A stretch of 64,000 nucleotides of DNA, from NCBI GenBank assembly GCA_964565195.1, contig CAZMCQ010000003.1, positions 24,080 to 88,079 of the forward strand, in the 5' to 3' direction. A program made the position numbers and the translations under genes. Below the pieces are notes generated by a model. That model was not told where the DNA came from. It made no database searches and worked only from the letters and a program-made list of their open reading frames with translations. Position 1 is the stretch's first letter; each line of letters starts with the position of its first letter. Below, piece by piece: positions 5,210-28,821 of this stretch. Origin of the DNA: an uncultured Candidatus Saccharibacteria bacterium. GTDB lineage: Bacteria > Patescibacteriota > Doudnabacteria > UBA920 > 2-01-FULL-46-14.

Positions 5210-6631
<1,422 letters not shown>

Positions 6632-10131: not shown

Positions 10132-10278
10132 AGCGGAGCGGCTCCTTGTTCATTTTGGGCAAGGCGCCGTTTTTTATTGGGCGTGTTCAAAATTCCGTTT
10201 TATGATATTCTTCAGGGTCAGGGCTGTTTTGCGGAAGCCCTGAAGTATGACATTTAGGTTAGAAAAGGAGGAAATTGT

Positions 10279-10947: not shown

Positions 10948-11033
10948 GTCCAGCCCGGAGGCGCTGGCAATATCCAAAGGTGGCTCGCGTGATTTGGGAT
11001 TCGTCCCGACTCTCGCAGTCACCTTTTTTTATT

Positions 11034-11073
11034 TGTTGAAAAACACCCACATTTGTGGGTGAAATTCAACAAA
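11034..11073. promoter_or_regulatory. 40-bp near-perfect palindrome (TTGTTGAAAAACACCCACATTTGTGGGTGAAATTCAACAA) upstream of pyrD; candidate operator
   Basis: Read directly; both nested arms (ttgttgaa/ttcaacaa and cacccaca/tgtgggtg) are reverse complements. Confidence 0.35.
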
Positions 11074-11213
11074 CGAATTTTGTCGGCACTGGTGCCAGTG
11101 TTATGCGGCCGTCGATTTTTAAGACGATGGGGGTTGCGAATTGACCGCCTTGTTGATTACAGTAAGGGGTGGTAGAATCAGTTTCTAATCCAAAGGGGAA
11201 AGGAGGCAAAAAT

Positions 11214-12146
11214 ATGTTTGAAACGACTTTGATGGGACTCCAGTTTGAGCATCCCGTCTTCAACGCGCCGGGTGAGGTAAAACGTCTCGAGCATGTCAAA
11301 GCTCTGTGCAGTTCTGCAGCCGTTGCGATCATGGTCGGTTCGATTACCTGGGAGCAGCGCGATGGCAACGCTGGAAATGTGTACTATCCGGGGCCGGAGT
11401 TCTCGCTAAATTCGCTGGGTTTGCCCAATGGCGGCCGGGAGTATTACCGCAAGCATTTGCCGGATATGGTCCGCATGGCCCACGATGCTGGCAAGCCGCT
11501 CTTTGTCAGCGTCGCGGGATTCTCGCCGCACGAGTATCTCCGGCTCGCAGATCTTGTGGCTGAAGCAGGCGCCGATGCCGTTGAGCTCAACCTTGGTTGC
11601 CCGAACGTCTGGGACGGCGGACAGCAGAAGGGCATTTTGTCCTTCGAGCCGGATCGGATCGATGAAACACTCGGGCTTCTCAAATTCGAGCTGGATTTGC
11701 CAGTGAGTTTGAAACTCTCGCCTTACTCGGATCCGGGGATGATTCCGAGGATCGCCGAAGTTTTGAAAAGGCACGCTGATATGGTCAAGGCGATCTCGGC
11801 GGTCAATTGTTTTCCAAACGCACTGAAATTCGGTGACGATGGCCAGCCAGTCATCACCCCCGGACAAGGCCTCGCGGGGCTCGGCGGCCCGGCGATGCGC
11901 CCCATCGCGCTCGGCCAGGTTTTCCAGTGGTTCAAGGTTCTGCCGACACGTTACATCCAGATTATTCGCGTCGGCGGCGCATCCCACGGGAAGGATGTTT
12001 TCGAATCAGAATCTCTCGGTGCGACAGCTACGCAGGTCGGCACAGCATTCTTCAATGAAGGACCTGGGATATTCAGCCGTATCCTCGCAGAGATGGTCGA
12101 GCTGCAGTCCAAAGCGCCGAACTACGGCACTGTCGAGCTCGGCTAG
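11214..12146 (+). CDS. pyrD: Dihydroorotate dehydrogenase
   Basis: FEHPVFNAPG, NLGCPN and LKLSP motifs; AGGAGG RBS; ORF track frame opens at 11169 but ATG 11214 follows RBS. Confidence 0.75.
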   Translation: MFETTLMGLQFEHPVFNAPGEVKRLEHVKALCSSAAVAIMVGSITWEQRDGNAGNVYYPGPEFSLNSLGLPNGGREYYRKHLPDMVRMAHDAGKPLFVSVAGFSPHEYLRLADLVAEAGADAVELNLGCPNVWDGGQQKGILSFEPDRIDETLGLLKFELDLPVSLKLSPYSDPGMIPRIAEVLKRHADMVKAISAVNCFPNALKFGDDGQPVITPGQGLAGLGGPAMRPIALGQVFQWFKVLPTRYIQIIRVGGASHGKDVFESESLGATATQVGTAFFNEGPGIFSRILAEMVELQSKAPNYGTVELG

Positions 12147-12156
12147 CTGGTTTTGG

Positions 12157-12204
12157 CCCAGCACCACTTTTGGGAGGCAAGTGGTGCTGGGAATTTTTTT
12201 ATTT
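12157..12204 (+). terminator. Rho-independent terminator after pyrD
   Basis: cccagcaccac ... gtggtgctggg 11-bp stem followed by aaTTTTTTTaTTTT. Confidence 0.6.
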
Positions 12205-12214
12205 TGGGATTTTA

Positions 12215-12223
12215 TGGTAAAAT
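12215..12223 (+). promoter_or_regulatory. Extended -10 promoter candidate (TGgTAAAAT) for rmuC
   Basis: TGnTAAAAT read directly between terminator and rmuC start. Confidence 0.3.
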
Positions 12224-12239
12224 GAACTGCGATTTAGGA

Positions 12240-12283
12240 ACCCCTCCCGGCCTACGGCCACCCTCCCCTCGGCAGGAGAGGGC
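12240..12283. repeat. GC-rich element, family A copy 2 (weaker, intergenic)
   Basis: cccctccc...ccctcccctc-ggca-ggagaggg partial palindrome. Confidence 0.35.
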
Positions 12284-12294
12284 TAATACAGCAA

Positions 12295-13311
12295 ATGAAT
12301 TTCCAAATACTAATTACAATTCTTATTGTCGCCGGCTTTGCGGCTATTATTTATTTTCTCCGCCGGAAGCCTAGGCAGGACCAGGCCGTGCAGGTTATGC
12401 TGGACTGGATGAAGTCCCTCAAAGAATCCGGGGATCTCTCCCGCAAAGAGATCCAGGAGTCCATTGCCGGCTCCAACAAAGAAATCAACGCGCGTCTTAC
12501 CGAGGCGGCGCGGCTGTTTTCGGATGTGCAGCACAAAGTCGGCCAGATGACCGAACTCGGCCGCTCCATGCAGGCGGTGCAGGAACTTTTGAAAGGCCCG
12601 AAAACGCGTGGCATATTTGGCGAAGATGCGCTGGAATCTCTCTTGAAGCAGGTTTTGCCGGCGCATAATTATCAGATGCAGTATCGCTTTCAGTCCGGCG
12701 AGGCCGTGGATTGCGTGGTCAAACTCAAAGAGGGCCTGGTCTGCATTGATTCCAAATTTCCGCTGGAAAATTTCCGGGCCATGATGAAATCCGAGACTGA
12801 TGAGGACCGCGAGAATTTCCGCCGCGCCTTTGTTCGCGACGTGAAAAAGCACGTGGAAACCATTACCAAAAAGTATATCCTTACGAACGAGGGCACGCTG
12901 GATTTTGCTCTGATGTACGTGCCGATGGAGAGCGTTTTTCAGGAGATCGTGAATGACGGCGAGCTGATGGACTACGCCCGGTCCAGAAAAGTGCATATCA
13001 CCTCGCCGAATTCTTTTTATCACTACATCACCATCATTCACACGGCGCTCAAAGGCGCGCAGATGAACGAACTGGCGCGGCAGGTTTTGAACATTATTGC
13101 CGCCCTCAAGCAGGATTCCGAAAAATTTGCCACGAATCTCGGCGTTTTGAACAAGCACGTTACCAATGCCAAGAACACGGTCGATGTGGTGAACGAAGGG
13201 TTTCGCTCGCTTGCCGGCAAGATTGAGAATGCCTATAATCTGCAGCTCGAGGAGCAGCGGGAAGTGGAAAAGCTGCCCGGCGGGCCGGAGAGCGATTTAT
13301 TAATTAAATAA
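12295..13311 (+). CDS. rmuC: DNA recombination protein RmuC
   Basis: N-terminal TM, long coiled-coil, C-terminal RmuC-type nuclease-like region (GEDALESLL...VDCVVKL...IDSKFPLE). Confidence 0.7.
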   Translation: MNFQILITILIVAGFAAIIYFLRRKPRQDQAVQVMLDWMKSLKESGDLSRKEIQESIAGSNKEINARLTEAARLFSDVQHKVGQMTELGRSMQAVQELLKGPKTRGIFGEDALESLLKQVLPAHNYQMQYRFQSGEAVDCVVKLKEGLVCIDSKFPLENFRAMMKSETDEDRENFRRAFVRDVKKHVETITKKYILTNEGTLDFALMYVPMESVFQEIVNDGELMDYARSRKVHITSPNSFYHYITIIHTALKGAQMNELARQVLNIIAALKQDSEKFATNLGVLNKHVTNAKNTVDVVNEGFRSLAGKIENAYNLQLEEQREVEKLPGGPESDLLIK

Positions 13312-13362
13312 CCCCCTCTCTTTCTCCCCCTCACGAGGGGGGAGAGGAAGTGGGGGTAGGAG
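13312..13362. repeat. GC-rich palindromic element, family A copy 3 (intergenic)
   Basis: tctccccctc-acga-gaggggggaga hairpin plus gtgggggtagg tail. Confidence 0.6.
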
Positions 13363-13370
13363 AAAACAAA

Positions 13371-13895
13371 ATGGCAGTATTTGAGATATTTACAAAACAC
13401 GAGGAGCAGCGGGTTGCGGTTTTCGTGGATGTGCAAAATTTGTATTACTCGGCCAGGAACATTTACAACTCGCGGGTCAATTTCTCGGCGCTCTTGAAAG
13501 AAAGCGTGGGAGAACGAAAACTGGTTCGCGCCACGGCCTATGTCATCCGCGCGCAGATGCCCGAGGAGCAGACGTTTTTCGACGCGCTGTCAAAGGCGGG
13601 GTTCGAGGTGAAAGCCAAAGACCTGCAGGTTTTCTACGGCGGGATCAAAAAAGGCGACTGGGATGTCGGGATCACGATGGACGCGATTCGGCAGATGGGC
13701 AAGGTAGATAGCATTGTTTTGGCCTCCGGCGACGGCGACTATGTGCCGCTTTTGGAATACATCAAAAATTTCGGCGTCCGCGCCGAGGTGATCGCCTTTG
13801 GTAAAAGTTCATCCAACAAATTGCTTGACGTCGTCGACTCATTCATTGACATGGATGAGCAGACAAAGAAGTTTTTGATTCCGATAAAGAAGTGA
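13371..13895 (+). CDS. NYN-domain (LabA/PIN-like) protein
   Basis: VAVFVDVQNLYYS ... DVGITMDAI ... LASGDGDYVPLL motifs of NYN/LabA family. Confidence 0.7.
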   Translation: MAVFEIFTKHEEQRVAVFVDVQNLYYSARNIYNSRVNFSALLKESVGERKLVRATAYVIRAQMPEEQTFFDALSKAGFEVKAKDLQVFYGGIKKGDWDVGITMDAIRQMGKVDSIVLASGDGDYVPLLEYIKNFGVRAEVIAFGKSSSNKLLDVVDSFIDMDEQTKKFLIPIKK

Positions 13896-13903
13896 CCGCT
13901 TGC

Positions 13904-13974
13904 GGTCATCCTGAGGGCTTGCCCCGAAGGATCTACGCCGTATAGAGATTCTTCGCTTCGCTCAGAATGACAAT
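13904..13974. repeat. ~70-bp nested palindrome, family B copy 1 (GTCATCCTGAG...GAAGGATCT...AGAGATTCTTCG...CTCAGAATGAC), intergenic
   Basis: Outer and inner arms reverse-complementary; second copy at 30079..30147. Confidence 0.6.
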
Positions 13975-13980
13975 AATCGT

Positions 13981-14688
13981 ATGAAACCCGTAGCCATTTT
14001 CGATATCGACGGGACGATTTTTCGGTCGAGCCTGACGATCGAGCTTTTGCGCGAACTGATGCGGGCCAAACAAGTGCCGGCCTCGTCCGTCCGGACGATT
14101 CAAAGATACGAGCGGCAGTGGCTGGACCGGCGCGCGGATTACGGCAGCTACATCTGGGAAATTGTCCGCTGGTTCCAGCACGAGCTCAAAGGCCGCAAAC
14201 AGCGCGAGATCGTCGCAGCCAGCAAGCGGGTAATCAGTCAGCACAAATTGCGCACTTATCGTTATACCCTGGATTTATTGGCAAAAATTCGCCGTAAATA
14301 TTTCACGATCGGTATTTCCGGTTCGCTTCTTGAGGTCGTCAGGGAGTATAATAAATTCCTGAAGTTTGATAAATTTTACGGGTGGGAGTTTGGCACCGAT
14401 GCGCAAGGCCGATACACGGGCACGGTGTTATACGATCCGCCGCGGTATAAAAAAGAAGTGATCGCGCGCTATGTGAAGAACCACGGTTTGAGTTTTAGCC
14501 GCTCCGTCGGTGTCGGGGATACCGAGTCAGACATTGGCTTTCTGGAACTGGTCGAGAAGCCGATCGCTTTCAACCCGAACCGCAAGCTTGCGGAAAGAGC
14601 CCGGAAAGCCAACTGGCCGATTGTCATCGAGCGCAAGGATCTGATTGTAGAATTCCAGCCAAAGAAGGTTAAATTTTTAAAAGTATGA
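13981..14688 (+). CDS. HAD-superfamily hydrolase, subfamily IB (phosphoserine-phosphatase-like)
   Basis: DIDGT motif I, GVGDTESD motif IV. Confidence 0.65.
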   Translation: MKPVAIFDIDGTIFRSSLTIELLRELMRAKQVPASSVRTIQRYERQWLDRRADYGSYIWEIVRWFQHELKGRKQREIVAASKRVISQHKLRTYRYTLDLLAKIRRKYFTIGISGSLLEVVREYNKFLKFDKFYGWEFGTDAQGRYTGTVLYDPPRYKKEVIARYVKNHGLSFSRSVGVGDTESDIGFLELVEKPIAFNPNRKLAERARKANWPIVIERKDLIVEFQPKKVKFLKV

Positions 14689-15047: not shown

Positions 15048-15452
15048 ATGTCTAAGAAGCGCGTTTTGGTTTTCGGCACGTTTGATATTTTGCATCCCGG
15101 GCATATTGATTTTTTGCGCCAGGCCAAGCGTTATGGCGATTTTTTGATTGTCTCTCTGGCTCGCGAGAAAAATGTCAAGCGCGTCAAAGGGCAAAAACCA
15201 TTTCATTCTGAAACTGACAGAAAAAAACTCCTTGAGTCTCTGAAATTCGTCGACAAAGTGGTGATGGGGTCTAAAGATAACTATTTGGGGCATATCAAAT
15301 CCCTCAAGCCGGATGTGATTGTTTTGGGCTACGACCAGAAAGCCTACACCAAAGATTTGAAAGCGAAACTGGCCGGATTGGGATTGAGTCCGAGGATAGT
15401 TCGCGCGCAGTCTTATAAATCTAAAATATATCGATCGAGGAATTATCGATGA
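15048..15452 (+). CDS. Cytidylyltransferase-like nucleotidyltransferase, probable FMN adenylyltransferase (RibL-like)
   Basis: HxGH motif FDILHPGH; sits directly upstream of riboflavin kinase. Confidence 0.5.
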   Translation: MSKKRVLVFGTFDILHPGHIDFLRQAKRYGDFLIVSLAREKNVKRVKGQKPFHSETDRKKLLESLKFVDKVVMGSKDNYLGHIKSLKPDVIVLGYDQKAYTKDLKAKLAGLGLSPRIVRAQSYKSKIYRSRNYR

Positions 15453-15799
15453 TAGTTGCGAAAGGCCTGGTGGAGAAGAGTTTGGGTCGGGGCAGAAAGC
15501 TCGGGTTCCCGACGGCGAATATTGCACTCGGGGATGCCGTCGTTGAGGACGGAATTTACATTGGCTTTGCGAATAAAATGCCTGCTTTGATTTTTGTCGG
15601 CGCGGCAGAGACCTTTGGCGAGAGAGAGCGCCGGATCGAAGCGCACCTTTTGGATTTTGACGGGGACTTATACGGACAGGAAATTGAGGTAGAGTTAAAG
15701 CAAAAAATCAGAGAGAGTAGAAAGTTTGAGACTCAAGAAGAATTAGTAGCCCAGATGAAAAAGGACGAACAAGTCGCCCGAAAATATTTTTCAACCTGA
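15449..15799 (+). CDS. Riboflavin kinase (stand-alone RibF C-terminal-type domain)
   Basis: GRGRKLGFPTAN motif. Confidence 0.7.
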   Translation: MIVAKGLVEKSLGRGRKLGFPTANIALGDAVVEDGIYIGFANKMPALIFVGAAETFGERERRIEAHLLDFDGDLYGQEIEVELKQKIRESRKFETQEELVAQMKKDEQVARKYFST

Positions 15800-16384
15800 A
15801 TGTTTACTGGAATTATCAAGACAGTAGCCAAAGTTAAAAAAGCTGAGTTTACTGGAGGCTCGCTTTTTTTAACTGTTGAAAAACCGAAACCCTGGAAAAT
15901 AAAGCCCGGAGATTCCATAGCTACTGATGGCGCCTGCCTAACAGTAAAGAAAGTTGGCAGCGGTGATTTTACTGTGGAATTGATGCCGGAGACCCTAAGC
16001 AAAACTGTTTTTGGAAAAAAATCGCCACACAGAGTAAACCTCGAGCAATCTCTGAAATTAACTGATTTACTTGACGGGCATTTGGTCATGGGTCACGTGG
16101 ATACAGTCGGCAAAATTAGTCAGGTGGAGAGGCGCGGCGCCTCAAAAGTTTACACAATGCAATTTCCAAGACAATTCAGCAAACTGATTGTTTCTAAAGG
16201 GGCAATTGCAGTGGATGGGATAAGCTTGACTATTGTTGATGCGGGCAAGGGCTGGTTTACAGTTTCACTCGTGGATCATACAATAAAGAACACCACCCTC
16301 GGCGAGAAGAGCCCGGGGGAGATGGTAAATATTGAATTTGATATTTTGGCTAAATATTTAAATCGAATATGGCGCAAACAGTAA
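15800..16384 (+). CDS. ribE: Riboflavin synthase
   Basis: MFTGII N-terminus and internal duplicated lumazine-binding halves. Confidence 0.8.
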   Translation: MFTGIIKTVAKVKKAEFTGGSLFLTVEKPKPWKIKPGDSIATDGACLTVKKVGSGDFTVELMPETLSKTVFGKKSPHRVNLEQSLKLTDLLDGHLVMGHVDTVGKISQVERRGASKVYTMQFPRQFSKLIVSKGAIAVDGISLTIVDAGKGWFTVSLVDHTIKNTTLGEKSPGEMVNIEFDILAKYLNRIWRKQ

Positions 16385-16833
16385 TTAAAGGTAATTTTGA
16401 GAGATTTGACGCATCAGAGTTTAAAGTGGGGCTGGTGGCAGCGCAGTTTAATAAAGATATAACCGAAGGGTTGCTGGAAAGTGCGATAGGAATTCTTGAT
16501 CAATATGCCGTGCCAAAATCAAGCATTGCAATTTATAGAGTCGCGGGAAGTATTGAGATACCGGTTATTTTGCAGAGTTTGGCAAAAACAAAACAATATG
16601 ATTGCCTTTTGGCTATTGGCGCGGTAATTAGGGGCCAAACGCCCCATTTCGATTACGTGGCAAAGATCGTTTCCGAAGGTGTTTTGCGTGTTATGCTGGA
16701 TAATAGTATCCCGGTTGGATTTGGTGTATTAACTTGTGATAATCATGAGCAGGCCAGAGCGCGGATTCATGTCGGTGGCGAAGCTGCCGAAGCCGCTCTG
16801 CAAAGCGCTAAACTCATTGATGAAAGAGGATGA
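16369..16833 (+). CDS. ribH: 6,7-dimethyl-8-ribityllumazine synthase
   Basis: KVGLVAAQFN...ITEGLL... lumazine synthase fold signature. Confidence 0.8.
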   Translation: MAQTVIKGNFERFDASEFKVGLVAAQFNKDITEGLLESAIGILDQYAVPKSSIAIYRVAGSIEIPVILQSLAKTKQYDCLLAIGAVIRGQTPHFDYVAKIVSEGVLRVMLDNSIPVGFGVLTCDNHEQARARIHVGGEAAEAALQSAKLIDERG

Positions 16834-20031: not shown

Positions 20032-21000
20032 ATGAACGTCAAATTTTTCACCGAGCTTGACAGGAAAAGTGTTCTGGAGGCCGGGGGCAAGGGGGCCTCG
20101 CTTGGGGAGATGACCAGCGCCAAAATTCCCGTGCCGCCGGGGTTTGTGGTTTTGGCCGCGGCTTTTGACCGCTTCCTCGCAGAAACCGATTTAGATTCGG
20201 AAGTCGAAGCGATTTTAAAAAAAGTCAACGCCAAAGACGTGAACTCTGTAGATAAAGCCTCGGCCGAGATCCGGGATTTGATCCACCGCGAGCAGATGCC
20301 CAAAGATTTGCAAAAAGAAATTGTCGCGGCTTATGATATTTTATTCCCCTCCCTTGAGGGGAGGGGCAAGGGGAGGGTGAAAGGACTTGTTGCGGTCCGC
20401 TCGTCAGCCACTGCCGAGGATTCCAAAGTCGCCTCCTGGGCAGGGGAACTGGAGACTTATCTGAATGTTCAGGAAAAAGGTTTAATCCGCGCGGTAATGA
20501 AGTGCTGGTCCTCGCTTTTTACGCCGCGCGCGATTTTTTACCGCTTTGAGAAGAAACTGCACCGCAAGCCGGTTTCTGTCGCGGTGGTGGTGCAGGAAAT
20601 GGTTCAGTCCGAGATTTCCGGCGTTGCTTTCACCGTGCACCCGGTTACAAAAGACTACAATCAAATGGTGATTGAGGCCGGGTTTGGTCTGGGGGAAGCG
20701 ATCGTTTCCGGCCAGATCACGCCAGATACCTACGTTGTGCACAAAAACGATTTTTCGATTCTCGATATAAATGTTTCAGAGCAGAAGATGGCAATTGTCA
20801 GAAGCGCTGGCGGCGATATTCACAAGAACCTGTCTGTAAAAGTAGGCAGCAAACAAAAACTCACGGGCAAGCAGATTGTGACACTCGCGAAAATCTGCAA
20901 AGGCATTGAAAAACACTACAAACACCCGCAAGACATAGAATGGGCCTATGTGAAGGGCAAATTCTACATCACTCAATCCCGCCCGATAACGACTTTATGA
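20032..21000 (+). CDS. Stand-alone PEP synthase / pyruvate phosphate dikinase N-terminal ATP-binding domain (PPDK_N) protein, with in-frame family A insertion
   Basis: GGKGASLGEM ... VAVRSSATAEDS ... ends exactly at the PPDK_N domain boundary (ITQSRPITTL); insertion FPSLEGRGKGRV from palindrome at 20343..20385. Confidence 0.7.
   Translation: MNVKFFTELDRKSVLEAGGKGASLGEMTSAKIPVPPGFVVLAAAFDRFLAETDLDSEVEAILKKVNAKDVNSVDKASAEIRDLIHREQMPKDLQKEIVAAYDILFPSLEGRGKGRVKGLVAVRSSATAEDSKVASWAGELETYLNVQEKGLIRAVMKCWSSLFTPRAIFYRFEKKLHRKPVSVAVVVQEMVQSEISGVAFTVHPVTKDYNQMVIEAGFGLGEAIVSGQITPDTYVVHKNDFSILDINVSEQKMAIVRSAGGDIHKNLSVKVGSKQKLTGKQIVTLAKICKGIEKHYKHPQDIEWAYVKGKFYITQSRPITTL
20343..20385. repeat. GC-rich palindromic element, family A copy 4, in-frame inside PPDK_N gene
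   Basis: cccctccc-ttga-ggggaggg plus caaggggagggtg. Confidence 0.65.
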
Positions 21001-21457
21001 AAACTTACGTGTTCATTGACGCATCAAATCTCTTTTACGGAGGCGAAATGTCCTTCTACTCACAATTCAAGGTCGATCTCGGAGACCCGAACCGCTACCG
21101 GACCTTAGGTGAGCTGGTAGCAGCCGTCTACCGGCAAATTTACTATTACAACAACGAGCGAATCCACACCAAATTAAAAATGCCGCCCAAGCTTTATGCC
21201 GAGCGACATCAATTAACAACTAATCCCGTATCCGTTAGACTGTAGACAAGATGTCTAAAGAACGGGGAGCAGGCCAGTTAGTGCTATCGGGCGATGGTGA
21301 TTTTTTGCCGGTGTTGAAACACTTAAAAGATCAGGGTAAACAAGTTATACTCCTTGCAAGAGGCCCGCGAACGGCAAAGGAGATAAGACAGTTTGCAGGA
21401 CCCAATTTCAGGGATTTTGAATACCTGAAATTCCTTCTGAAAATGGATGACATATAA
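20997..21457 (+). pseudogene. Decayed NYN-domain gene with an embedded transposase (rve-family) C-terminal tail fragment
   Basis: MKTYVFIDASNLFYGG (NYN N-motif) ... LGELVAAVYRQIYYYNNERIHTKLKMPPKLYAER (integrase-core tail) ... stop ... LVLSGDGDFLPVLKHLKDQGKQVILLA (NYN C-motif) in a second ORF. Confidence 0.45.
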
Positions 21458-21536
21458 AACGAAGCGGACTCGTATAGAATCCGCTTCACGTTTAGTACTT
21501 ATAGCGTATACTAAAGCTGCTAAATTTGTCAAATGG

Positions 21537-21599
21537 CCTATGCCAAGGGTAAATTCTATATCATCCAATCAAGGCCAATCACGACATTGAAGTAATATT
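21537..21599 (+). pseudogene. Diverged duplicate of the PPDK_N gene 3' end (MAYAKGKFYIIQSRPITTLK*)
   Basis: ~75% nt identity to 20941..21000; encodes the same terminal peptide. Confidence 0.4.
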
Positions 21600-21656
21600 C
21601 ATATTTTCCAATTCTATGGAATTGGATACCAAATTTTACCAAATTATGGCTTTGAA

Positions 21657-22730
21657 ATGAGGATTAAATACGAATTATATTGGGAGGATATTGGTGAAAG
21701 AGTAATTTACGCAGAATTGGACGATTATGCTTGGAAACTACCCGAAAAAGTATTTAGATATAGAAAAAAGAATTCTCTATATATTTATCATCATGGAAAA
21801 ATGGCCGCATTTTATTCCAAGGATGATTCCCGGATAGAGGCAGCGATTGGAAGAAAATTTTTTAGTAAATCGATCAATGCGGCAAAAGTCGGTAAGCTCC
21901 AGGTAAGGAGTTTTAATAAAGTTAGAAACTATCAAAAAAAGATAAAACATGAAGAGATTATCAAACTTTTCGATAAAAATTTGAAACAAATGATATTTAA
22001 AACCCTCAATCTTTATCGTGAGGCCTTAAGCGTCCACTATTTAACCCAACCCCAATTTTTTGAAGGATTTAATGCTAGGGATTCAGAACGTTATTCTCAA
22101 ATTCTAAAAAAGCTTGCAGGAAATAGATTCACGTATACGAGAATTGCCTGGACATCTGCTTTTCAGCTAGCCAAATTTTTGCTAAGAGAGTATAGCAAAA
22201 GAATGAAGATAGGTCTTGAACAAGCTGAAAGCCTTTTATATAGAGAGCTTGCACAAAATAAAATTACGAAGAAACAACTAATAAAACGAGCTAAAGCATT
22301 TGTTTTAATTTCCAAAAATCATAGATTTAAACTTTATACGGGCAAGACAGTCCAAAAATATATTGATAAATATGAAAATTATCGCAATATTAGCTCGGTG
22401 AAGGGTATTATAGGCAACAAGAGAGGCAGAGTAAGGGGGAAAGCCTTTGTGGTTAGTAATGAAAATTTAGATCTTAACAAATTACCTAGGGGGATGAAAA
22501 AGGGTATGATTTTGATTGTTCAAAACGCGTGGCCCGAATTTGCTAAATATTACAAACTTGCCTCCGCAATTATTACAAACGAGGGTGGAATTACCTCACA
22601 CGGAGTGGTTGTTTCTCGAGAGTTCGGAATTCCCTGCATCGTTGGCACTAAAATTGCCACCAAAGTCTTCAAGGACGGGGATCTGGTCGAGGTGGATGCG
22701 AACAGGGGGATTGTCAAAAAAATAAACTAG
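21657..22730 (+). CDS. Protein with Lys-rich uncharacterised N-domain and C-terminal PEP-utilising-enzyme mobile (swivel His) domain, paralog P1
   Basis: C-terminus GGITSHGVVVSREFGIPCIVG...DGDLVEVDANRG matches PEP-utilizers phospho-His domain; strongly AT-rich. Confidence 0.6.
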   Translation: MRIKYELYWEDIGERVIYAELDDYAWKLPEKVFRYRKKNSLYIYHHGKMAAFYSKDDSRIEAAIGRKFFSKSINAAKVGKLQVRSFNKVRNYQKKIKHEEIIKLFDKNLKQMIFKTLNLYREALSVHYLTQPQFFEGFNARDSERYSQILKKLAGNRFTYTRIAWTSAFQLAKFLLREYSKRMKIGLEQAESLLYRELAQNKITKKQLIKRAKAFVLISKNHRFKLYTGKTVQKYIDKYENYRNISSVKGIIGNKRGRVRGKAFVVSNENLDLNKLPRGMKKGMILIVQNAWPEFAKYYKLASAIITNEGGITSHGVVVSREFGIPCIVGTKIATKVFKDGDLVEVDANRGIVKKIN

Positions 22731-23336
22731 ATGATCAAGTTAATCATCATTGATTTCTACGGGGTGATGACTTGCGGAAGTTATAAAGAAACTTGTCAGT
22801 GGATAGCGAAGAAATATAAGTTGGATTATCGATTCGTTTATAAAATTGTTTATCATAAATATTTTGGGCAAGCAGCGCTAGATAAAATCACCGAGCGCGA
22901 GTCCTTTGAGCTGCCAGCCAGAGAGCTGGGCCTGAAAGAAAGTTGGCGGGAGTTGCTGGTAAAGCACACATCCTTTCAGAAACTTCGTTTATCTGTTTTT
23001 AATCTTGCCAGAGATTTGCAAAAACAGGGTTATCTGATCCTGCTGCTCTCGAAGAATACCAGGGGGCAATTTGATTATGCCTTACGAAAAATGAATATCA
23101 GGCGTTATTTTAAAAATATCATCAACACGCTGGATTTGAAATTACCAAAGGCCTCGACCAAAACCATCAGATACGTGCTGAAAAAATTTCGCGTCAAACC
23201 CTCAGAAACCATAATGGTTGATGATCAAGATTTTAATCTGACTGAACCGGCCAAGCTCGGCGTGCACACCATCCTTTATAAAAATCCTCGACAATTAAAA
23301 ACGGGCCTCCGCAAGGGCCTTTACAATAAAGTTTAG
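22731..23336 (+). CDS. HAD-like hydrolase (variant motif I DFYG)
   Basis: IIDFYGVMT motif I variant, MVDDQDFN motif IV. Confidence 0.5.
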   Translation: MIKLIIIDFYGVMTCGSYKETCQWIAKKYKLDYRFVYKIVYHKYFGQAALDKITERESFELPARELGLKESWRELLVKHTSFQKLRLSVFNLARDLQKQGYLILLLSKNTRGQFDYALRKMNIRRYFKNIINTLDLKLPKASTKTIRYVLKKFRVKPSETIMVDDQDFNLTEPAKLGVHTILYKNPRQLKTGLRKGLYNKV

Positions 23337-24037
23337 ACGCCTGTTATGCTCGCGTGTTTGCCGCGTAAGTATTTCTGGAAATGCTGCCACTTCTTTTTAT
23401 CTAAGTTCCAATGCTCTGCGTCTTCAGCATACCATTTGAGCAGATTCGCCGCTTCCGGAGTTATAAGTTTATATTTCAGAGCATAGTTGTTGATATCATA
23501 AATATCGCCAAAGGATTGGAATTTAACCTTCATGTCTTTGACAAACTTTATGCACTCCCGCCCGCTTCTTCCGCAGTTGGTGCGGGACAATGGCACGATC
23601 ACCCAGTTGACCTTGAGGCCCGCTGTTCTTATATTTTTGATGAATTTCTTTTTTGCTACCCCATGACCTAAGGCGTCATCTACCAGCAGAGCTGCCATAC
23701 CTTTACGGTAATTTCCCTCAACCGCAAGGCTTAAGCCTCCGGGTTTTGGTTCCTTGCGTACATAGCCAAAGGGTTTATTTAGCGCCATACCCAGAGCAGT
23801 AGCCAGAGGAATACCGGCTGTTACTCCACCTAGAATCACGTCAAATTTGATTTTCTTAGATTTGATAAACTTGACAATCTCACTTACTATCATGCGCATT
23901 CGCCTTGGATCGCCAAGGGTTTTGCGCATATCCGGATAAATTGGACAGATGCGATTGCTTGTGGTAACTTTCGGGCCAATTTCAAAGAAAAATGGAGTGG
24001 TGGCAAAAGCCTTAATGATTTTCTGACTTTTGAGCAT
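23333..24037 (-). CDS. Orotate phosphoribosyltransferase-like type I PRTase (second paralog)
   Basis: ICPIYPDMR and PRPP loop ALLVDDALGHG. Confidence 0.55.
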   Translation of the reverse strand: MLKSQKIIKAFATTPFFFEIGPKVTTSNRICPIYPDMRKTLGDPRRMRMIVSEIVKFIKSKKIKFDVILGGVTAGIPLATALGMALNKPFGYVRKEPKPGGLSLAVEGNYRKGMAALLVDDALGHGVAKKKFIKNIRTAGLKVNWVIVPLSRTNCGRSGRECIKFVKDMKVKFQSFGDIYDINNYALKYKLITPEAANLLKWYAEDAEHWNLDKKKWQHFQKYLRGKHASITGV

Positions 24038-24082
24038 AAGATTATTCTAGCATTTTGGTAATAAAAAAACAGGCCTGAAACC

Positions 24083-24133
24083 TGGAAAAATTGGGAGTAG
24101 AAGGCGAGCCACAGAGGGTCTTCGCCTTCTACT
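24083..24133 (-). terminator. Intrinsic terminator for minus-strand histidine-phosphatase gene
   Basis: gtagaaggcgag...cttcgccttctac 12-bp stem; T-run on minus strand (A-run 24085-24090 on +). Confidence 0.5.
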
Positions 24134-24146
24134 AAAAAGCTTTGGA

Positions 24147-24755
24147 CTACTGCCGGCCGAGGTTGCCGAGGTATCGCAAGTCGCTCCATCTATCCTCAAC
24201 AAAATCGAGTATTCCAACAGCCCCTGGCTCAAATGGGGACATAGCGTGCCACTTAGAGTGGATAAGCCAGGCTATCGAGACCTCGATCCGCGAGCCGCCG
24301 TGGCTCGCTATGCCGATAGTTTTCCCTTGGTGGGAGCGGACAAAATAGTCAATCTCACGTCCCCCTTCCTCCCCGCGGCAGGTATTCGTCCCGCAGATCC
24401 ATTGCTCGTTGGATCTAAGGATCTGTTCTTCGACACTGACCCCAGCGGTTTTGGCATCGGCGCGTAGTTTCTCGAGTACGCCCGGAGTGAAGGGGTATAG
24501 ACCCAGTGTGGCATCGCCGATTACGTCATTCGTGTAGAGCGGGGCGATGAACCCCATCCCGAGCATGTTGTAATGCAGGGTCTGGATGGCTCGGCCCTTT
24601 GGGGAAGAAAATGCGACGTCGATCTTGTGGCCCATTTCCTTGAGCTTCTGGCCCGAGCGAATGCAACGTTCGATCGAGGCTAGCGGCAATGCGTCCATCG
24701 GTACTTCTTCGCCTTCCCGAGATTCATGCCGGAAAATCAGCACAGTAGTTTTCAT
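24147..24755 (-). CDS. Histidine phosphatase family (phosphoglycerate-mutase-like) protein
   Basis: N-terminal RHE(S)...E catalytic-His motif, internal IASHGG. Confidence 0.55.
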   Translation of the reverse strand: MKTTVLIFRHESREGEEVPMDALPLASIERCIRSGQKLKEMGHKIDVAFSSPKGRAIQTLHYNMLGMGFIAPLYTNDVIGDATLGLYPFTPGVLEKLRADAKTAGVSVEEQILRSNEQWICGTNTCRGEEGGREIDYFVRSHQGKTIGIASHGGSRIEVSIAWLIHSKWHAMSPFEPGAVGILDFVEDRWSDLRYLGNLGRQ

Positions 24756-24867
24756 TGAACCCTCCTTGGTTCATGTAGTTTTTTGGTTTTAGATTATAAA
24801 AAGAACGAAGGTATATGTTAGCAGATTTGCGCTGTTTTGTCAACAGTGACTATAATTAAGCTAAATT

Positions 24868-26316
24868 ATGCCAAAAAATAAGCCTGAAAAAGACCTTTGG
24901 ATGGTGGCAGCGGAAATACCTCAAGACACAGTTTTTATGATGAGTGGGGCTCTTAAATTTATGATTCAGTCGTGGCCCACAATTGGTTTAGGCGGCAAAG
25001 TCTCCAAGTATTTCAGTCTGTTTGAAGGTGATTTTTGCAGGATGTATTATCTGCGTACCGAATTCGACGCCCAAGCCGCATTTTTGGCCGACAAGATGAT
25101 TAGTGATCCAGACTGGGCGCTGGGGTTTATCAAAAAAGTGGAAAACTGGTCTGCCAACTTCTTCAAAGAATCAAAACGATTCAGGAAACTTAACTTTTCT
25201 CAACTAGATAACCAGCAGATGATACGAGAGTATCAGAAACCCCTCAAATATCATGTCCTCTCCCACGGCAATGGGTCATCTGTTTCTTGGCATGCGGATG
25301 CAGACAAACAGAAGGTGACCAAAGCAATGCTCAAGACCCTTCAGTGTACCCCCGAGCAATTTAGCACCCTTTCAACGCCGTACAGAGGGAGCTTGGTAAG
25401 GGATGAGGAAAAGGACATCTTGAGACTAGCGATAATAAAGGATAAACAAAAGTTGATTGCACATGCCAAAAAGTATGAGTGGTTAAACTACCAATACAAA
25501 GGACCAGCCTACGATTTTTCTTACTTTGACGAGAGATTTAAGGCATTACTGAAAGGTAAAAATGATTTTGCTCCCGATAAACTTCTTGAAAAAATATTGC
25601 AGGCAGAAAAAGCTTTGATTCCAAAACAGCAAAAACTTATCACGAGCCTGAAATTTAGCCGGCATCAGGTTAAACTAATCAGGCTGGCCCAGGCGCTGGT
25701 TTTTATAAAAGATTATCGTAAGGATGCGCTTTATCATGGTATGTATAGCTATGAGCCGTTTTTCCGAGAAGTAGGCCGACGCTTGGGTTTGAGTCTGGAC
25801 CAAGTAAGAGCGTTTAACTATTGGGAGGTAGGTCCGGCATTGTTGAAAGGTGCATTTGATCCTAATGAACTTAATCAAAGATTGAAATTCTGTGTTGCGT
25901 GGGTTGATAAGAAAAATTACATTGTGTACACGGGGGAAAAAGCCAGAGAAATTTTGAGCAAGATTAGTTTCGAGAAATTAAAGACAAGAGGTATCGAAGA
26001 ACTAATCGGAATGTGCGCCTGTCCGGGGGTAGTTAAAGGGATTGTGAAGATAGTTAATATTCCAGAAGATATGGAAAAGATGGAAACAGGCAATGTCCTT
26101 GTTGCACACAACACTAATCCCAATCTCGTTCCAGCCATGAAAATGGCAGCCGCGATAATTTCGGAAGCGGGGGGATTGACCTGTCACTCGGCCATCGTAG
26201 CCCGTGAATTTCAGATTCCATGTGTCGTGGGTGTACCTGGTGCAGACAAGATTTTGAGAGATGGGGATTTGGTAAAAGTTGATGCGACCAAAGGGATTAT
26301 TAAAAAACTAAAGTGA
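24868..26316 (+). CDS. Uncharacterised ~380-aa N-domain + C-terminal PEP-utilising swivel-His domain, paralog P2
   Basis: C-terminus GGLTCHSAIVAREFQIPCVVG...DGDLVKVDATKG. Confidence 0.6.
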   Translation: MPKNKPEKDLWMVAAEIPQDTVFMMSGALKFMIQSWPTIGLGGKVSKYFSLFEGDFCRMYYLRTEFDAQAAFLADKMISDPDWALGFIKKVENWSANFFKESKRFRKLNFSQLDNQQMIREYQKPLKYHVLSHGNGSSVSWHADADKQKVTKAMLKTLQCTPEQFSTLSTPYRGSLVRDEEKDILRLAIIKDKQKLIAHAKKYEWLNYQYKGPAYDFSYFDERFKALLKGKNDFAPDKLLEKILQAEKALIPKQQKLITSLKFSRHQVKLIRLAQALVFIKDYRKDALYHGMYSYEPFFREVGRRLGLSLDQVRAFNYWEVGPALLKGAFDPNELNQRLKFCVAWVDKKNYIVYTGEKAREILSKISFEKLKTRGIEELIGMCACPGVVKGIVKIVNIPEDMEKMETGNVLVAHNTNPNLVPAMKMAAAIISEAGGLTCHSAIVAREFQIPCVVGVPGADKILRDGDLVKVDATKGIIKKLK

Positions 26317-27800
26317 AACCTAAATATCTTCACGACAATGATCCTTGGATGCTCGCGGAAGATATCCCGGATATCGATTTTCAGTTTTCTCAAATTTGGC
26401 TCTCTTCTTTTGTCAACGATTTAGAAAAAACAGTTGGGCGGAATTACAAGAAAATTCTCTGTGTTTATAAAGGTCTAAACCTGAAATTTTATTATGGAGA
26501 GAAAGATTCTGACAACTTTGCCAAACACGTCCTCGGGCTGATTTTGAACAATCCGGATTTCGGTGTAAAAATAAATAAACAAATTCGAGTTTATTCAGAT
26601 CGGCTCAAAGGAAATTCCAGAATTATTACTCAGGACTTTTTGCGAAGTCTGTCAAATCAAGATTTAGCTAGCTTTTATCATGAACTAGATGCGCTTCATA
26701 CTGAACTCTATACTTGGGGTTGGCTACCCAATGCCGTCGACATGTTCCATGGAAACTTTACAAATCATCTGAAACGCCTTCTCCGGGCGAAGATTACAGA
26801 AGATCTGGTTAACGAAACGCTGGTAGCGCTATCCACGCATCCCGAAAAAAGCATTATTCAGCAAGAGCACCAGTCCTTTTTGGGTCTGGTCGTCATGAAG
26901 CAATCGAGAGCCCCCAAAGAAGCGTTCAAAGAAGCATTCAAAGCCCACTTGGATAAATATTTTTATCTCAAACACCTTTGGATTGGCAAAGATGGAGTCT
27001 ACGACGAACAGTATTATTTGGATGAAGTCAAAAAGTTTAAGACTTCGGCGAGGGAGCTTTTGGTAAAAGAAAACCAGGCTTTCCGGCAGACTTTGAGCAA
27101 GAGGATGAAACTATTATCAAAATTAAAATTCGTCCAAAAAGAAAAACAAATTTTGGATGTCTATGCAGAATTCGCTATTACCAAAATGTACCGGCGAGAT
27201 GCCCAAATTTTTTGGGCATACAAAATGGATTTTGTGTTTAGTGAACTATCGCGAAGACTGAAAATTCCTTTTGTGCAAACTCGTTTCATGTTTCCGCATG
27301 AAGTAATTTCTGCCCTGAAGGCGGGCTGGCTTGCACCTAACTTGAAAAAAGAATTGAAAGAAAGGGTTAAATACTGCGTTTATTATGCAGTGAAGGACCG
27401 GGATTATTTATTTATAACAAAAGCGGCAAAGGAATTGGAGGCTCAAATCAAACAAAATCTGGACGAGAATGTAAATGAATTAGTTGGGCAAACGGCTTGC
27501 CTGGGGAAGGCAAAGGGCGTGGCCAAAATAGTGAACTCACCCTTTGACATGCGAAAAATGAACAAAGGGGATATTCTCGTAAGTATCGCTACCAACCCAG
27601 ATATTGTGCCAGCCATGAAAAAAGCTGCGGCGATTGTGACAGAACAGGGCGGCATCACAAGCCACGCGGCCATTGTCTCACGAGAGCTGGGAATTCCTTG
27701 TGTCATCGGTACGAAAATCGCCACCAAAGTTTTTAAAGACGGTGATTTGGTCGAGGTGGATGCGAATAAAGGAACAGTGAGGAAAATTTCTAATTTCTAA
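26313..27800 (+). CDS. Uncharacterised ~395-aa N-domain + C-terminal PEP-utilising swivel-His domain, paralog P3
   Basis: N-terminus parallels P2 (DPWMLAEDIPD); C-terminus GGITSHAAIVSRELGIPCVIGTKIATKVFKDGDLVEVDAN nearly identical to P1. Confidence 0.6.
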   Translation: MKPKYLHDNDPWMLAEDIPDIDFQFSQIWLSSFVNDLEKTVGRNYKKILCVYKGLNLKFYYGEKDSDNFAKHVLGLILNNPDFGVKINKQIRVYSDRLKGNSRIITQDFLRSLSNQDLASFYHELDALHTELYTWGWLPNAVDMFHGNFTNHLKRLLRAKITEDLVNETLVALSTHPEKSIIQQEHQSFLGLVVMKQSRAPKEAFKEAFKAHLDKYFYLKHLWIGKDGVYDEQYYLDEVKKFKTSARELLVKENQAFRQTLSKRMKLLSKLKFVQKEKQILDVYAEFAITKMYRRDAQIFWAYKMDFVFSELSRRLKIPFVQTRFMFPHEVISALKAGWLAPNLKKELKERVKYCVYYAVKDRDYLFITKAAKELEAQIKQNLDENVNELVGQTACLGKAKGVAKIVNSPFDMRKMNKGDILVSIATNPDIVPAMKKAAAIVTEQGGITSHAAIVSRELGIPCVIGTKIATKVFKDGDLVEVDANKGTVRKISNF

Positions 27801-27808
27801 ACAACTGC

Positions 27809-27836
27809 TTGACAGATAAAACCCGTTGTATATACT
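27809..27836 (+). promoter_or_regulatory. Sigma70-like promoter (TTGACA-16-TATACT) giving a near-leaderless transcript for the antitoxin gene
   Basis: Perfect -35, good -10, ATG only ~7 nt downstream of -10. Confidence 0.45.
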
Positions 27837-27842
27837 ATAGCT

Positions 27843-28118
27843 ATGAAGACTCAAATCATTATAAAGACGGATAGAGAGGTCAAGAAAACTGCGCAGAAAC
27901 TCGCCAAAGAATTGGGCCTGCCTTTAAGCACGCTGATTAATGCTTATTTGAGGGAATTTGTCAGAAGCCAAAAAATAACCATTTCGATGGAGCCTGAATT
28001 AAAGCCCGAGATCGGACGCCTTCTGAAAAAAGCCAGTGAAGATTTTAAAAAGGGACGGAACGTTTCTCCTGTTTTTGATAATACTAAGGAAATGCTGGAA
28101 TATTTGCATTCGCAATAA
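27843..28118 (+). CDS. Type II antitoxin candidate (RelB/DinJ-like)
   Basis: 91-aa protein directly upstream of, and 1-nt overlapping, a RelE/YafQ-family toxin gene. Confidence 0.5.
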   Translation: MKTQIIIKTDREVKKTAQKLAKELGLPLSTLINAYLREFVRSQKITISMEPELKPEIGRLLKKASEDFKKGRNVSPVFDNTKEMLEYLHSQ

Positions 28119-28375
28119 TGCAAATTGTTTTACACAAAAGATTTAAACGGCGATATAAAAAACTCCGGGCCTTGCAAAAGCAAATTGATGAAAGGCTTTT
28201 TTTATTTGCGCACAATCCATTTCATCCGATTTTAAACAATCACGCACTGATTGGCAAGTATAAGAATTATCGTAGTATTAACATTACTGGTGATTATCGA
28301 GCTCTCTATGAACCGATTGCCAGAAATAAGGCGTTTTTTGTCATAGTAGATACCCACAGCAATTTGTATAAATGA
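28118..28375 (+). CDS. RelE/YafQ/ParE-superfamily mRNA-interferase toxin
   Basis: C-terminal ITGDYRALYE...FFVIVDTHSNLY signature. Confidence 0.65.
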   Translation: MQIVLHKRFKRRYKKLRALQKQIDERLFLFAHNPFHPILNNHALIGKYKNYRSINITGDYRALYEPIARNKAFFVIVDTHSNLYK

Positions 28376-28821
28376 AAATCGTCATTGACACCAATGTTTT
28401 AATCAATGGCGCTGCGGATGAGCAGTCCGTGGCTTTTAAGATTGTCAAGGAGGTGATCGAGGGTCGCATTGAGGCATATGCTACGCACCAGACCATGAGT
28501 GAAAACCGGCAGATGCTGCGCAAGCTTGTCCGCGACCCCGAGTACCGCGAGCTTCTGGAAGAGTATTTTCGCAACCTGCAAATTGTGAAAGTTTTTCAGG
28601 CGCTAAATGTGGTGGCTGACCCCGAGGACAACAAATTGTTCGAATCCGCCGCTTCTTCCGGCGCGGAGTATTTGATTTCCAATGACAAAGAAGTCCTTGC
28701 TGTCGAACAGTATCACAACACCAAGATCGTCCCGCCGGACGAGTTCTGGGCGACCTATAAAAACGAAACCGACGACGGCTCGGCGTGGAATGACTGGGCG
28801 AAGATGCTGATGGGAAAGTAG
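28372..28821 (+). CDS. PIN-domain nuclease (PIN_3-like TA toxin component)
   Basis: IVIDTNVLI N-terminus, internal acidic residues, ISNDKEVL; ATGA overlap with upstream toxin gene. Confidence 0.65.
   Translation: MKIVIDTNVLINGAADEQSVAFKIVKEVIEGRIEAYATHQTMSENRQMLRKLVRDPEYRELLEEYFRNLQIVKVFQALNVVADPEDNKLFESAASSGAEYLISNDKEVLAVEQYHNTKIVPPDEFWATYKNETDDGSAWNDWAKMLMGK

Follow-up and report, generated by a model that had tools for sequence, protein, structure and literature searches.

The locus considered here lies at positions 20032–28821 of a 64,000-nucleotide stretch of contig CAZMCQ010000003.1 (the whole of which we refer to as the window), and it raises the question of what an AT-rich tract with a scarred edge represents in a genome of otherwise higher GC content. 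The original prediction, made from the sequence alone, regarded the tract at ~21.0–28.4 kb as a horizontally acquired, recombinationally scarred region with paralogous "swivel-His" genes as its main cargo. The account that we favor, and that we consider fairly probable, is that 20032–28821 is a split two-component dikinase cluster related to rifampin phosphotransferase (RPH) and of a type found in the Candidate Phyla Radiation (CPR), and that it is long resident, has had its partner genes replaced piecemeal and carries one local scar of insertion sequence (IS) and NYN gene remnants. Within the cluster, one ATP-grasp protein probably serves three interchangeable RPH-like partners.

A stand-alone ATP-grasp gene and three divergent partner genes

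The first gene of the cluster (20032–21000, plus strand) encodes a 322-residue protein that consists of an ATP-grasp (PPDK_N) domain alone (PF01326, E=2.4e-100, profile positions 3–311 of 328), which agrees with the stand-alone ATP-grasp subunit of an HpeHI-type dikinase. It is the sole PPDK_N gene in the window, and homologues of 311–330 residues are abundant (>100 clusters, 70–78% identity). In comparisons with ATP-grasp domains of known structure, the protein matched phosphoenolpyruvate (PEP) synthase (8a8e, 2e-67), Listeria RPH (5fbs/5hv1, 2e-59), and the 387-residue chain 9goj (3e-46). By analogy with these enzymes, we propose that it is the ATP-binding subunit of a split dikinase. Although it lies outside the island as originally called, it is likely the functional partner of the "cargo" genes; the three swivel-His genes are present as predicted, yet the description of them as an island's cargo leaves this partner out.

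Specifically, the partners are encoded by three plus-strand genes, which we name by the length of their products. The short-class protein sw357 (21657–22730; 357 residues) has a reduced helical substrate domain followed by a C-terminal phosphohistidine swivel domain (PEP-utilizers, E=4.9e-21; His315 in TNEGGITSH). The long-class protein sw482 (24868–26316; 482 residues) combines a RIF-binding-like helical domain at ~1–375 with a swivel domain (His440 in SEAGGLTCH), and the long-class protein sw495 (26313–27800; 495 residues; PEP-utilizers, E=5.9e-27; His451 in TEQGGITSH) is 31% identical to sw482, with a start that overlaps the sw482 stop by 4 nt. All three carry PF00391 at the C-terminus and the motif T/S-x-x-G-G-x-x-x-H, which has been described as catalytic (PMC12167813); in the two-component HpeHI, HpeI is the ATP-grasp subunit, HpeH comprises the substrate-binding and swivel domains, and mutation of the conserved His led to loss of activity (PMC12167813). 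In family alignments of 55 and 50 homologues (sw482 and sw357 families, respectively), the swivel His is invariant. The N-terminal regions of the partners matched no curated family, and because these N-domains are only 21–27% identical to one another, the partners probably take different substrates.

AlphaFold2 models built on these 55 and 50 homologues reached a pLDDT of 94.0 and a pTM of 0.91 for sw482 and a pLDDT of 94.2 for sw357. When the sw482 model was compared with the PDB using Foldseek, the top six matches were all Listeria rifampin phosphotransferase, with 5hv1 (E=2.3e-12, TM 0.60) aligning over the whole query; the top matches of sw357 were likewise RPH structures (5fbt/5fbu/5hv1, E ~2e-10). 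The order of secondary structure elements is alike in sw357 and sw482, the helical domain of sw357 being the shorter. Thus, a RIF-binding-type helical domain and a swivel domain were found together in the modeled partners, and the structural alignments with RPH have 13–19% sequence identity.

Profile comparisons place these proteins outside the curated enzyme families. Against the NCBIfam model RIF_Ptrans_rph (NF041857), the PPDK_N protein scored 273 bits, sw482 65 bits, and sw357 47 bits, with a cut-off of 999; PpsA equivalog scores of the cluster proteins were all below the cut-offs, and the PEP/pyruvate-binding domain PF02896 had no Pfam match in the ten cluster proteins scanned. A PRK08296-type model of 608 positions, which we take to cover HpeH/PpsA-like subunits, aligned only with the swivel region (positions 501–606, 90 bits versus a cut-off of 578), and because of this restricted alignment the CPR partners form, by this proxy, a subfamily separate from the HpeH/PpsA type. 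PADLOC returned no defense family for the dikinase, phosphatase, or RelBE proteins and only a weak match for the PIN protein, and exact-sequence look-ups of sw357 and of P0001 gave no record. In public databases, these CPR proteins are annotated as "PEP synthase", "pyruvate, water dikinase", or "PEP-utilizing enzyme". These names are probably wrong because none of the scanned proteins has a PEP/pyruvate-binding domain. They would also wrongly imply gluconeogenic capacity, while structure comparison puts the CPR proteins with RPH-type small-molecule dikinases.

Recurrence of the cluster in related genomes

There are hundreds of sw482 homologues, almost all of them from Patescibacteria and some from DPANN archaea. 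With the N-domain of sw482 as query, 1083 clusters at 50% identity were found at E<=1e-3, most of them at 25–35% identity; the stand-alone PPDK_N protein, at 70–78%, is far better conserved. Three long proteins (P0365, P0367, and P0371, of 2309, 1506, and 1500 residues) each have 3–4 separate matches to this N-domain and are either fused tandem partners or mis-called open reading frames (ORFs). Among 58 fetched loci with split partner genes, the short (~330–390 residues) and long (~450–540 residues) classes recur, 30 loci carry two or more partner genes, and tandem arrays reach eight or nine (L088, L091). A lone PPDK_N gene is also present in 17 of the 58 and directly adjoins a partner gene in 12 of these.

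Three loci found through PPDK_N were informative. In L171, the closest relative found (PPDK_N 78% identical), the order is PPDK_N, a short partner (sw350), a 201-residue HAD protein (61% identical to the one in the window), a minus-strand His_Phos_1-like gene, a DUF433/DUF5615 pair, four partner genes, CTP_transf_like, GIY-YIG, and flavokinase. The Doudnabacteria locus L172 (PPDK_N 72%) reads CTP_transf_like, flavokinase, PPDK_N, two partners, NUDIX, partner, HAD, partner, and an RHH-PIN pair, with a few unassigned genes interspersed, and is a looser form of the pattern in the window. In L173 (PPDK_N 76%), FtsA and FtsZ are followed by PPDK_N and a single partner, whose identity to sw495 is 65%. 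We also note that the Nanoarchaeota-labeled L174 holds three partner genes (at 4702–6707 and 10001–12476), one of them beside a low-molecular-weight phosphatase gene, and has no PPDK_N within 10 kb.

The relatives found have the gene order in common with the window, which suggests that the locus is an old resident and counts against a recently acquired island. Conserved synteny had been named in advance as evidence against acquisition, and the order does recur in L171 and, more loosely, in L172. The complementary expectation, absence of the block from relatives that share the flanks, was not borne out: no relative shares the flanks, while those found through PPDK_N have the same architecture and differ in the individual partners. 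Specifically, 80 genome loci were fetched with the decarboxylase of the window, of which two represent the same population; 0 of the 78 remaining relatives (58–77% identical in the decarboxylase) keep other tested window genes at a comparable position, and for want of closer relatives, decarboxylase synteny cannot discriminate between the alternatives. Several of the metagenome-assembled genomes (MAGs) in this set with the most similar decarboxylase (70–77% identical; L006, L009, L011, and others) are labeled uncultured Gammaproteobacteria; their closest relatives in the list are Patescibacteria, and the labels are probably mislabels. In the literature, we found no description of one ATP-grasp gene with divergent partner arrays in CPR or DPANN, the sole related mention being a passing count of rph-like hits in one CPR resistome survey.

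The low-GC tract is a mosaic

Counted in 1-kb windows, GC content drops from 0.50–0.52 to 0.38–0.43 between 21 and 28 kb; over ~20.9–28.4 kb it ranges from 0.31 to 0.45 (against ~0.52), with the minimum of 0.31 at 21.5–22.5 kb. At third codon positions (GC3), the 50 other genes of the 64-kb window have a mean of 0.62 (standard deviation 0.08). By comparison, GC3 is 0.34 in sw357 (the lowest in the window), 0.45 in sw482, 0.43 in sw495, 0.48 in both a HAD-family phosphatase gene and a phosphoribosyltransferase gene, 0.45 in a RelB-like antitoxin gene, and 0.34 in the adjacent RelE-like toxin gene. The run of 11 consecutive genes has a mean GC3 of 0.479 (Mann–Whitney p=3.8e-4; permutation test for any 11-gene run, p=0.0016). 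First and second codon positions (GC1 and GC2) are depressed likewise, and because of this the tract proteins have an AT-type composition. The predicted AT-richness relative to the flanks (GC3 from ~0.62 to 0.34–0.48) is therefore real, and the uniform composition that would have spoken against it was not what the GC3 calculation returned.

Nevertheless, the low-GC tract is a mosaic with two native-GC genes inside it or at its end, namely the minus-strand gene at 24147–24755 (GC3 0.655) inside the tract and the PIN gene at 28372–28821 (GC3 0.673); the PPDK_N gene just upstream of the tract is also native (GC3 0.60). Because the PIN gene is native-like, the compositional right edge lies at ~28375. 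Both compositional boundaries coincide with stop/start overlaps (ATGA at 20997–21000 and at 28372–28375).

Two further low-GC3 blocks are present in the window. One, at 15048–16833 (GC3 0.37–0.50), contains CTP_transf_like (FMN adenylyltransferase-like), flavokinase, riboflavin synthase (Lum_binding), and lumazine synthase genes; CTP_transf_like and flavokinase also directly adjoin the dikinase cluster in L171 and L172, and their link with it may be more than chance. The other, at 43045–45729 (GC3 0.45–0.57), contains dUTPase, thymidylate kinase, thymidylate synthase, and DHFR genes.

Could the whole of 21.0–28.4 kb nonetheless be one acquired island, brought in or scarred by an IS, stabilized by a toxin–antitoxin (TA) module, and carrying the swivel-His paralogues as cargo? 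The significant run of low-GC3 genes and the lowered GC1 and GC2 are what such an island would leave, as are the IS3 tail and pseudogenes at the left edge and RelBE at the right; the nearest homologues of sw357 and sw482 are in distant low-GC lineages, and contigs of other assemblies break in the left block (contig ends or starts there include 21736, 21775, 21948, and 22806). We nevertheless regard this explanation as unlikely. It is at odds with the two native-GC genes inside the tract or at its end; there is no integrase, no tRNA within 5 kb, and no bounding direct repeat; and the partner that the cargo would need, the native-GC PPDK_N, lies outside. Moreover, the order PPDK_N, short partner, HAD, His-phosphatase-like, TA, partners is common to L171 and recurs more loosely in L172, and the HAD protein, 61% identical to that of L171, is encoded by a low-GC gene in both loci, where the signal of an ancient transfer would be expected to have faded. 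Of the predicted "horizontally acquired, scarred region", the atypical GC, the scar on the left, the TA module at the right end, and a foreign-looking sw357 thus hold, while a self-contained 7.4-kb island is not supported.

Independent assemblies support the structure of the locus

The window is collinear, at 99.93–100% identity, with contigs of two GenBank MAG assemblies (GCA_016198105.1 and GCA_016207695.1) and of two Logan run assemblies. These four assemblies apparently represent the same population as the window, and the matching MAGs are labeled Candidatus Doudnabacteria (CPR/Patescibacteria, groundwater). One contig, JACQPC010000061.1, matches the window at 100% identity from the decarboxylase through PPDK_N and the NYN/IS scar to codon 97 of sw357; other contigs reach from sw357 or HAD to the helicase gene, and Logan contigs from two runs cover HAD to helicase. 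Because independent contigs are collinear across the structure, the joins are real and not an assembly chimera.

An assembly or binning artefact, in which the low-GC block would be a chimeric join of AT-rich foreign DNA, could draw on the fact that GCA_016198105.1 has the region on two contigs with a 38-bp gap at 21737–21774. However, JACQPC010000061.1, which comes from a different assembly, bridges PPDK_N, the scar, and the 5' part of sw357 at full identity, the Logan contigs of two runs bridge HAD to helicase, the ATGA gene overlaps bridge both compositional boundaries, and the alternation of native- and low-GC genes would require several chimeric joins. We conclude that this explanation is extremely unlikely and effectively already refuted. 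The contig breaks in the left block may reflect weak coverage of AT-rich DNA or strain heterogeneity. We note that ends or starts of contigs from four other assemblies (loci L001, L002, L003, L004, and L005) fall at 21736–23338 of the window.

Partner genes show probable turnover and a shift toward AT

The best homologue of sw357 is 61% identical over the full length (55% in the N-domain and 78% in the swivel domain) and is encoded on a 34%-GC contig of a MAG labeled Nanoarchaeota by NCBI. By contrast, identity between sw357 and sw350, which occupies the same slot in L171, is 25% for the N-domains and 48% for the swivel domains, and the sw357 swivel domain is <=57% identical to all others compared, against 78% to the Nanoarchaeota-labeled homologue. 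A crossover in the swivel-coding region that swapped only the N-domain was considered but found no support, since in sw357 this domain, too, is nearest to that of the Nanoarchaeota-labeled homologue. The best matches of sw482 (58%, 54%, and a partial match of 58% labeled "archaeon") belong to other lineages, and those in L171 and L172 are <=31% identical. Thus, at least one cargo gene, sw357, looks foreign.

We also compared the composition of partner genes with that of their flanks at other loci. Of 35 independent loci, 30 have partner genes with a lower GC3 than their surroundings (mean shift –0.05; Wilcoxon p=1.8e-5). GC-richer hosts tend to have the larger shift (Spearman –0.37, p=0.03), and PPDK_N genes are unshifted (mean +0.001, n=15). 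The strongest partner shift, –0.20, is that of the window. In some GC-rich hosts, partner GC3 equals or exceeds that of the flanks (L090, 0.67 versus 0.61; L099, 0.75 versus 0.70, for a single partner gene), and because the partners in L090 and L099 are GC-rich, the partner family is not inherently AT-rich. These sequences suggest that partner genes have been replaced repeatedly by lateral transfer from a CPR/DPANN pool that is mostly AT-rich.

An alternative would be vertical inheritance only, with the low GC being gene-specific and due, for instance, to weak codon selection on lowly expressed, fast-evolving genes. Several observations are in line with it: the AT shift of partners is family-wide (the 30 of 35 loci above); L171 has the same mosaic, with PPDK_N higher, partners and HAD lower, and the His-phosphatase-like gene highest in GC; and the N-domains are extremely divergent, most of the 1083 clusters being at 25–35% identity. 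On the other hand, the partners in L090 and L099 match or exceed their flanks, sw357 is far nearer to a Nanoarchaeota-labeled protein (55% and 78%) than to its L171 counterpart (25% and 48%), and the remnant of another PPDK_N gene that precedes sw357, described below, points to recombination. Taking these together, we consider vertical inheritance alone quite unlikely and retain a resident cluster with piecemeal partner replacement as the better account.

A local scar between the ATP-grasp gene and sw357

The ~650 bp between the ATP-grasp gene and sw357 are best read as local debris. They begin with the 5' fragment of an NYN gene (20997–21047, plus strand; ~16 codons, MKTYVFIDASNLFYGG), whose start overlaps the PPDK_N stop (ATGA). 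After these 16 NYN-like codons, the ORF at 20997–21245 stays in frame and matches rve_2 (Pfam, E=1e-6) from ORF residue 38 (~21051) onward, and 21048–21245 encodes the C-terminal tail (~66 residues) of an IS3-family DDE transposase. The best plasmid matches of this tail (tblastn, 40–48% identity) are annotated as IS3 family transposases, and it is 47% identical to an intact 273-residue rve transposase in L104; this rve-type gene (L104 1623–2444) adjoins a partner gene in another CPR contig. Of the IS3 element, only the last ~66 codons are left at the locus, with no rve core and no identifiable inverted repeats. The IS3 remnant is a fragment and not an element. The 3' fragment of the NYN gene follows in a different frame (68-residue ORF, 21251–21457, plus strand; Pfam NYN, E=8e-7, profile positions 99–138 of 145), and ~80 residues of the NYN domain are absent between the two fragments. 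The interruption of an NYN gene by an rve-type transposase tail was accordingly seen correctly from the outset. A hairpin with a 13-bp stem (21459–21489), terminator-like on the minus strand, lies directly past the NYN stop. At the DNA level, the scar had no match among plasmids.

Further downstream (21531–21595, plus strand), the final ~20 codons of a PPDK_N gene survive as a frameshifted relic (..WAYAKGKFYIIQSRPITTLK*), which ends 61 bp upstream of sw357, where an ATP-grasp gene would normally end; PPDK_N directly beside a partner gene is the usual arrangement at other loci. The relic had been predicted to be a diverged duplicate of the last 20 codons of the preceding gene. A copy does exist: it is identical to the resident tail (20939–21000) at 45 of 57 bases, with a 1-nt deletion. 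However, it is just as near to the PPDK_N tail of another genome (L136, 45 of 55), and because it is equally near to other genomes' PPDK_N tails, it is better read as the end of a second PPDK_N gene. We rejected the possibility that it arose by recent duplication of the resident gene end, or is an att-like repeat of it, because the identity is 79% with an indel and the likeness to foreign tails is equal. Because L174 has no PPDK_N within 10 kb of its partner gene sw358, the relic cannot be traced to a Nanoarchaeota-type donor.

The simplest account of these remnants is a tentative one. In it, sw357 would formerly have had its own upstream ATP-grasp gene, either resident or incoming; a rearrangement would have left its last 20 codons and replaced the rest by DNA ending in the present PPDK_N–NYN pair; and an IS3-family element would have entered the NYN gene, with a later deletion removing most of the IS and ~80 NYN codons.

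Elsewhere in the window (13350–14688), an intact NYN gene (181 residues) is followed by a HAD gene (235 residues), both of native GC. That the decayed NYN gene and the cluster HAD gene are close paralogues of this pair was rejected, as BLAST gave no cross-hits.

Interspersed genes and the toxin–antitoxin module

Three further genes lie between sw357 and sw482. The first (22731–23336, plus strand) encodes a HAD-family phosphatase of 201 residues (Pfam Hydrolase and HAD_2), which is 61% identical to the 201-residue HAD protein in the same slot of L171. The second (23333–24037, minus strand) encodes an orotate-phosphoribosyltransferase-like protein (Pfam Pribosyltran) that is below every equivalog cut-off (88 bits versus 245 for NCBIfam pyrE-type models) and 49% identical to a phosphoribosyltransferase within the L100 array. 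The third (24147–24755, minus strand) encodes a divergent histidine-phosphatase-superfamily protein (His_Phos_1, 19.6 bits versus a cut-off of 21.7), with counterparts in the same slot of L171 (19.7 bits) and L100 (22.2 bits). The window and L171 proteins gave no BLASTP alignment with each other and are linked by their weak Pfam matches and position. We note that both His_Phos_1-like genes are on the minus strand and have a high GC3 (0.655 in the window, 0.767 at L171 5685–6302) next to neighbors at ~0.45. Accessory genes in arrays elsewhere include HAD, histidine-phosphatase-like, phosphoribosyltransferase (L100), NUDIX (L172), and low-molecular-weight phosphatase (L174) genes; such enzymes may act on phosphorylated products.

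At the right end, a RelB/DinJ-like antitoxin gene (27843–28118, plus strand; TIGR02384, E=2.3e-9, below cut-off; weak Pfam DUF6364 match) overlaps by 1 nt with a RelE/StbE (YafQ-like) toxin gene (28118–28375, plus strand; TIGR02385, 31.5 bits versus 27.9; Pfam YafQ_toxin, E=1.4e-6), as in type II RelBE pairs. The RelE stop in turn overlaps (ATGA) the start of a gene for a putative PIN_3-family toxin (28372–28821, plus strand; PIN_3, E=9.4e-16; TIGR00305, 46.7 bits versus 29.15), which by composition is outside the low-GC tract. The antitoxin/RelE/PIN module originally proposed here is thus present, RelE and PIN scoring above their cut-offs and the antitoxin below. The L172 cluster likewise ends in a toxin–antitoxin-type gene pair, RHH-PIN.

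A working model for the cluster

In the model that we propose, drawing on the RPH and HpeHI precedents, the ATP-grasp subunit would bind ATP and pass a phosphoryl group to the swivel His (His315, His440, or His451) of a partner. The swivel domain would then return to its own helical pocket and phosphorylate a small-molecule hydroxyl, yielding AMP, Pi, and a phospho-compound. The three divergent pockets (21–27% identical) would correspond to three different substrates, and neighboring phosphatases may process the products. Lateral replacement of partner genes from an AT-rich CPR/DPANN pool would leave them AT-shifted in this 52%-GC genome.

More tentatively, and as a possibility for which we would not yet claim an even chance, CPR and DPANN organisms might follow a scheme of "one engine, many adaptors", in which a conserved ATP-grasp protein charges fast-diversifying partners that are exchanged laterally, even across domains. 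Such a repertoire (three partners here, up to nine or more elsewhere, and >1000 N-domain clusters at 50% identity) could allow episymbionts to modify, detoxify, or trap host-derived or environmental small molecules, with phosphatases completing the pathways and TA pairs stabilizing the array.

Several points weigh against the account of a long-resident cluster with laterally replaced partners. The window and L171 agree in having a low-GC HAD gene and a high-GC His-phosphatase-like gene. Because the GC of these genes is alike in the two loci, some gene-specific compositional bias seems to persist without transfer. HAD appears to have been inherited vertically although it is low-GC, and the AT shift might stem from gene-specific mutation or selection regimes and not from transfer. 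MAG taxonomic labels, including "Nanoarchaeota", were taken as given by the source. The idea of one ATP-grasp protein for three partners derives from gene counts and adjacency, and other PPDK_N proteins may be encoded elsewhere in the genome. At the sequence level, the partners resemble RPH and HpeH in the swivel region only, the N-domains being without a curated family, and the dikinase function of the CPR members as well as their substrates are putative. Finally, the order of events proposed for the scar is tentative.

The enzyme type itself is known, from RPH and from the two-component systems HpeHI, CreHI, and PpsAB. The multi-partner split dikinase locus, its function being putative, is in our view a more interesting object than an island. 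CPR genomes of ~1 Mb hold few expanded families, and nine-partner arrays would fill >1% of such a genome; this array size suggests an important function not yet studied, which may be small-molecule handling by symbionts. The locus also illustrates that a low-GC "island" signature can arise in a conserved locus through module-by-module replacement, and that composition alone overstates mobility. The split architecture lends itself to co-expression of the one ATP-grasp protein with each partner.

Comparison with known systems

With genomic islands, the tract shares atypical composition, an IS remnant, pseudogenes, and a TA module; it differs from them in lacking an integrase, a tRNA target, and bounding repeats, in its mosaic composition and shared order, and in its probable dependence on a flanking native-GC gene. 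With PEP synthase (PpsA) and PPDK, the cluster proteins share homologous ATP-grasp and swivel domains; PF02896, which defines PpsA/PPDK, was not reported in the cluster proteins scanned, and the partner N-domains are instead RPH-like and helical.

With Listeria monocytogenes RPH (5FBS, 5HV1; PMC4844700), the cluster has the same three domains in common. RPH is the best structural match of both modeled partners, and the chemistry is presumably RPH-like, ATP and substrate being converted to AMP, Pi, and phospho-substrate via a swiveling phosphohistidine. RPH is a single chain of ~865 residues, whereas here the ATP-grasp domain is encoded by a separate gene and scores fall below the rph equivalog cut-off. 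Unlike for RPH, nothing points to rifamycins as the substrate.

In its organization, the cluster is like HpeHI, CreHI, and the phenylphosphate synthase PpsAB (PMC12167813), with which it shares a separate ATP-grasp subunit, an RPH-type substrate-binding and swivel partner, the catalytic-His motif, and adjacent genes. The PPDK_N protein is closer to the ATP-grasp domains of PEP synthase and RPH (2e-67 and 2e-59) than to 9goj (3e-46), and the partners are shorter (357–495 residues; in HpeH, the catalytic His is residue 581). HpeHI-type systems belong to aromatic catabolism, whereas the present system, known from its genes, is found among phosphatase, phosphoribosyltransferase, and TA genes in ultra-small symbionts. 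HpeHI-type enzymes are 1:1 pairs, whereas here one ATP-grasp gene is accompanied by three partner genes and in other CPR loci by up to nine.

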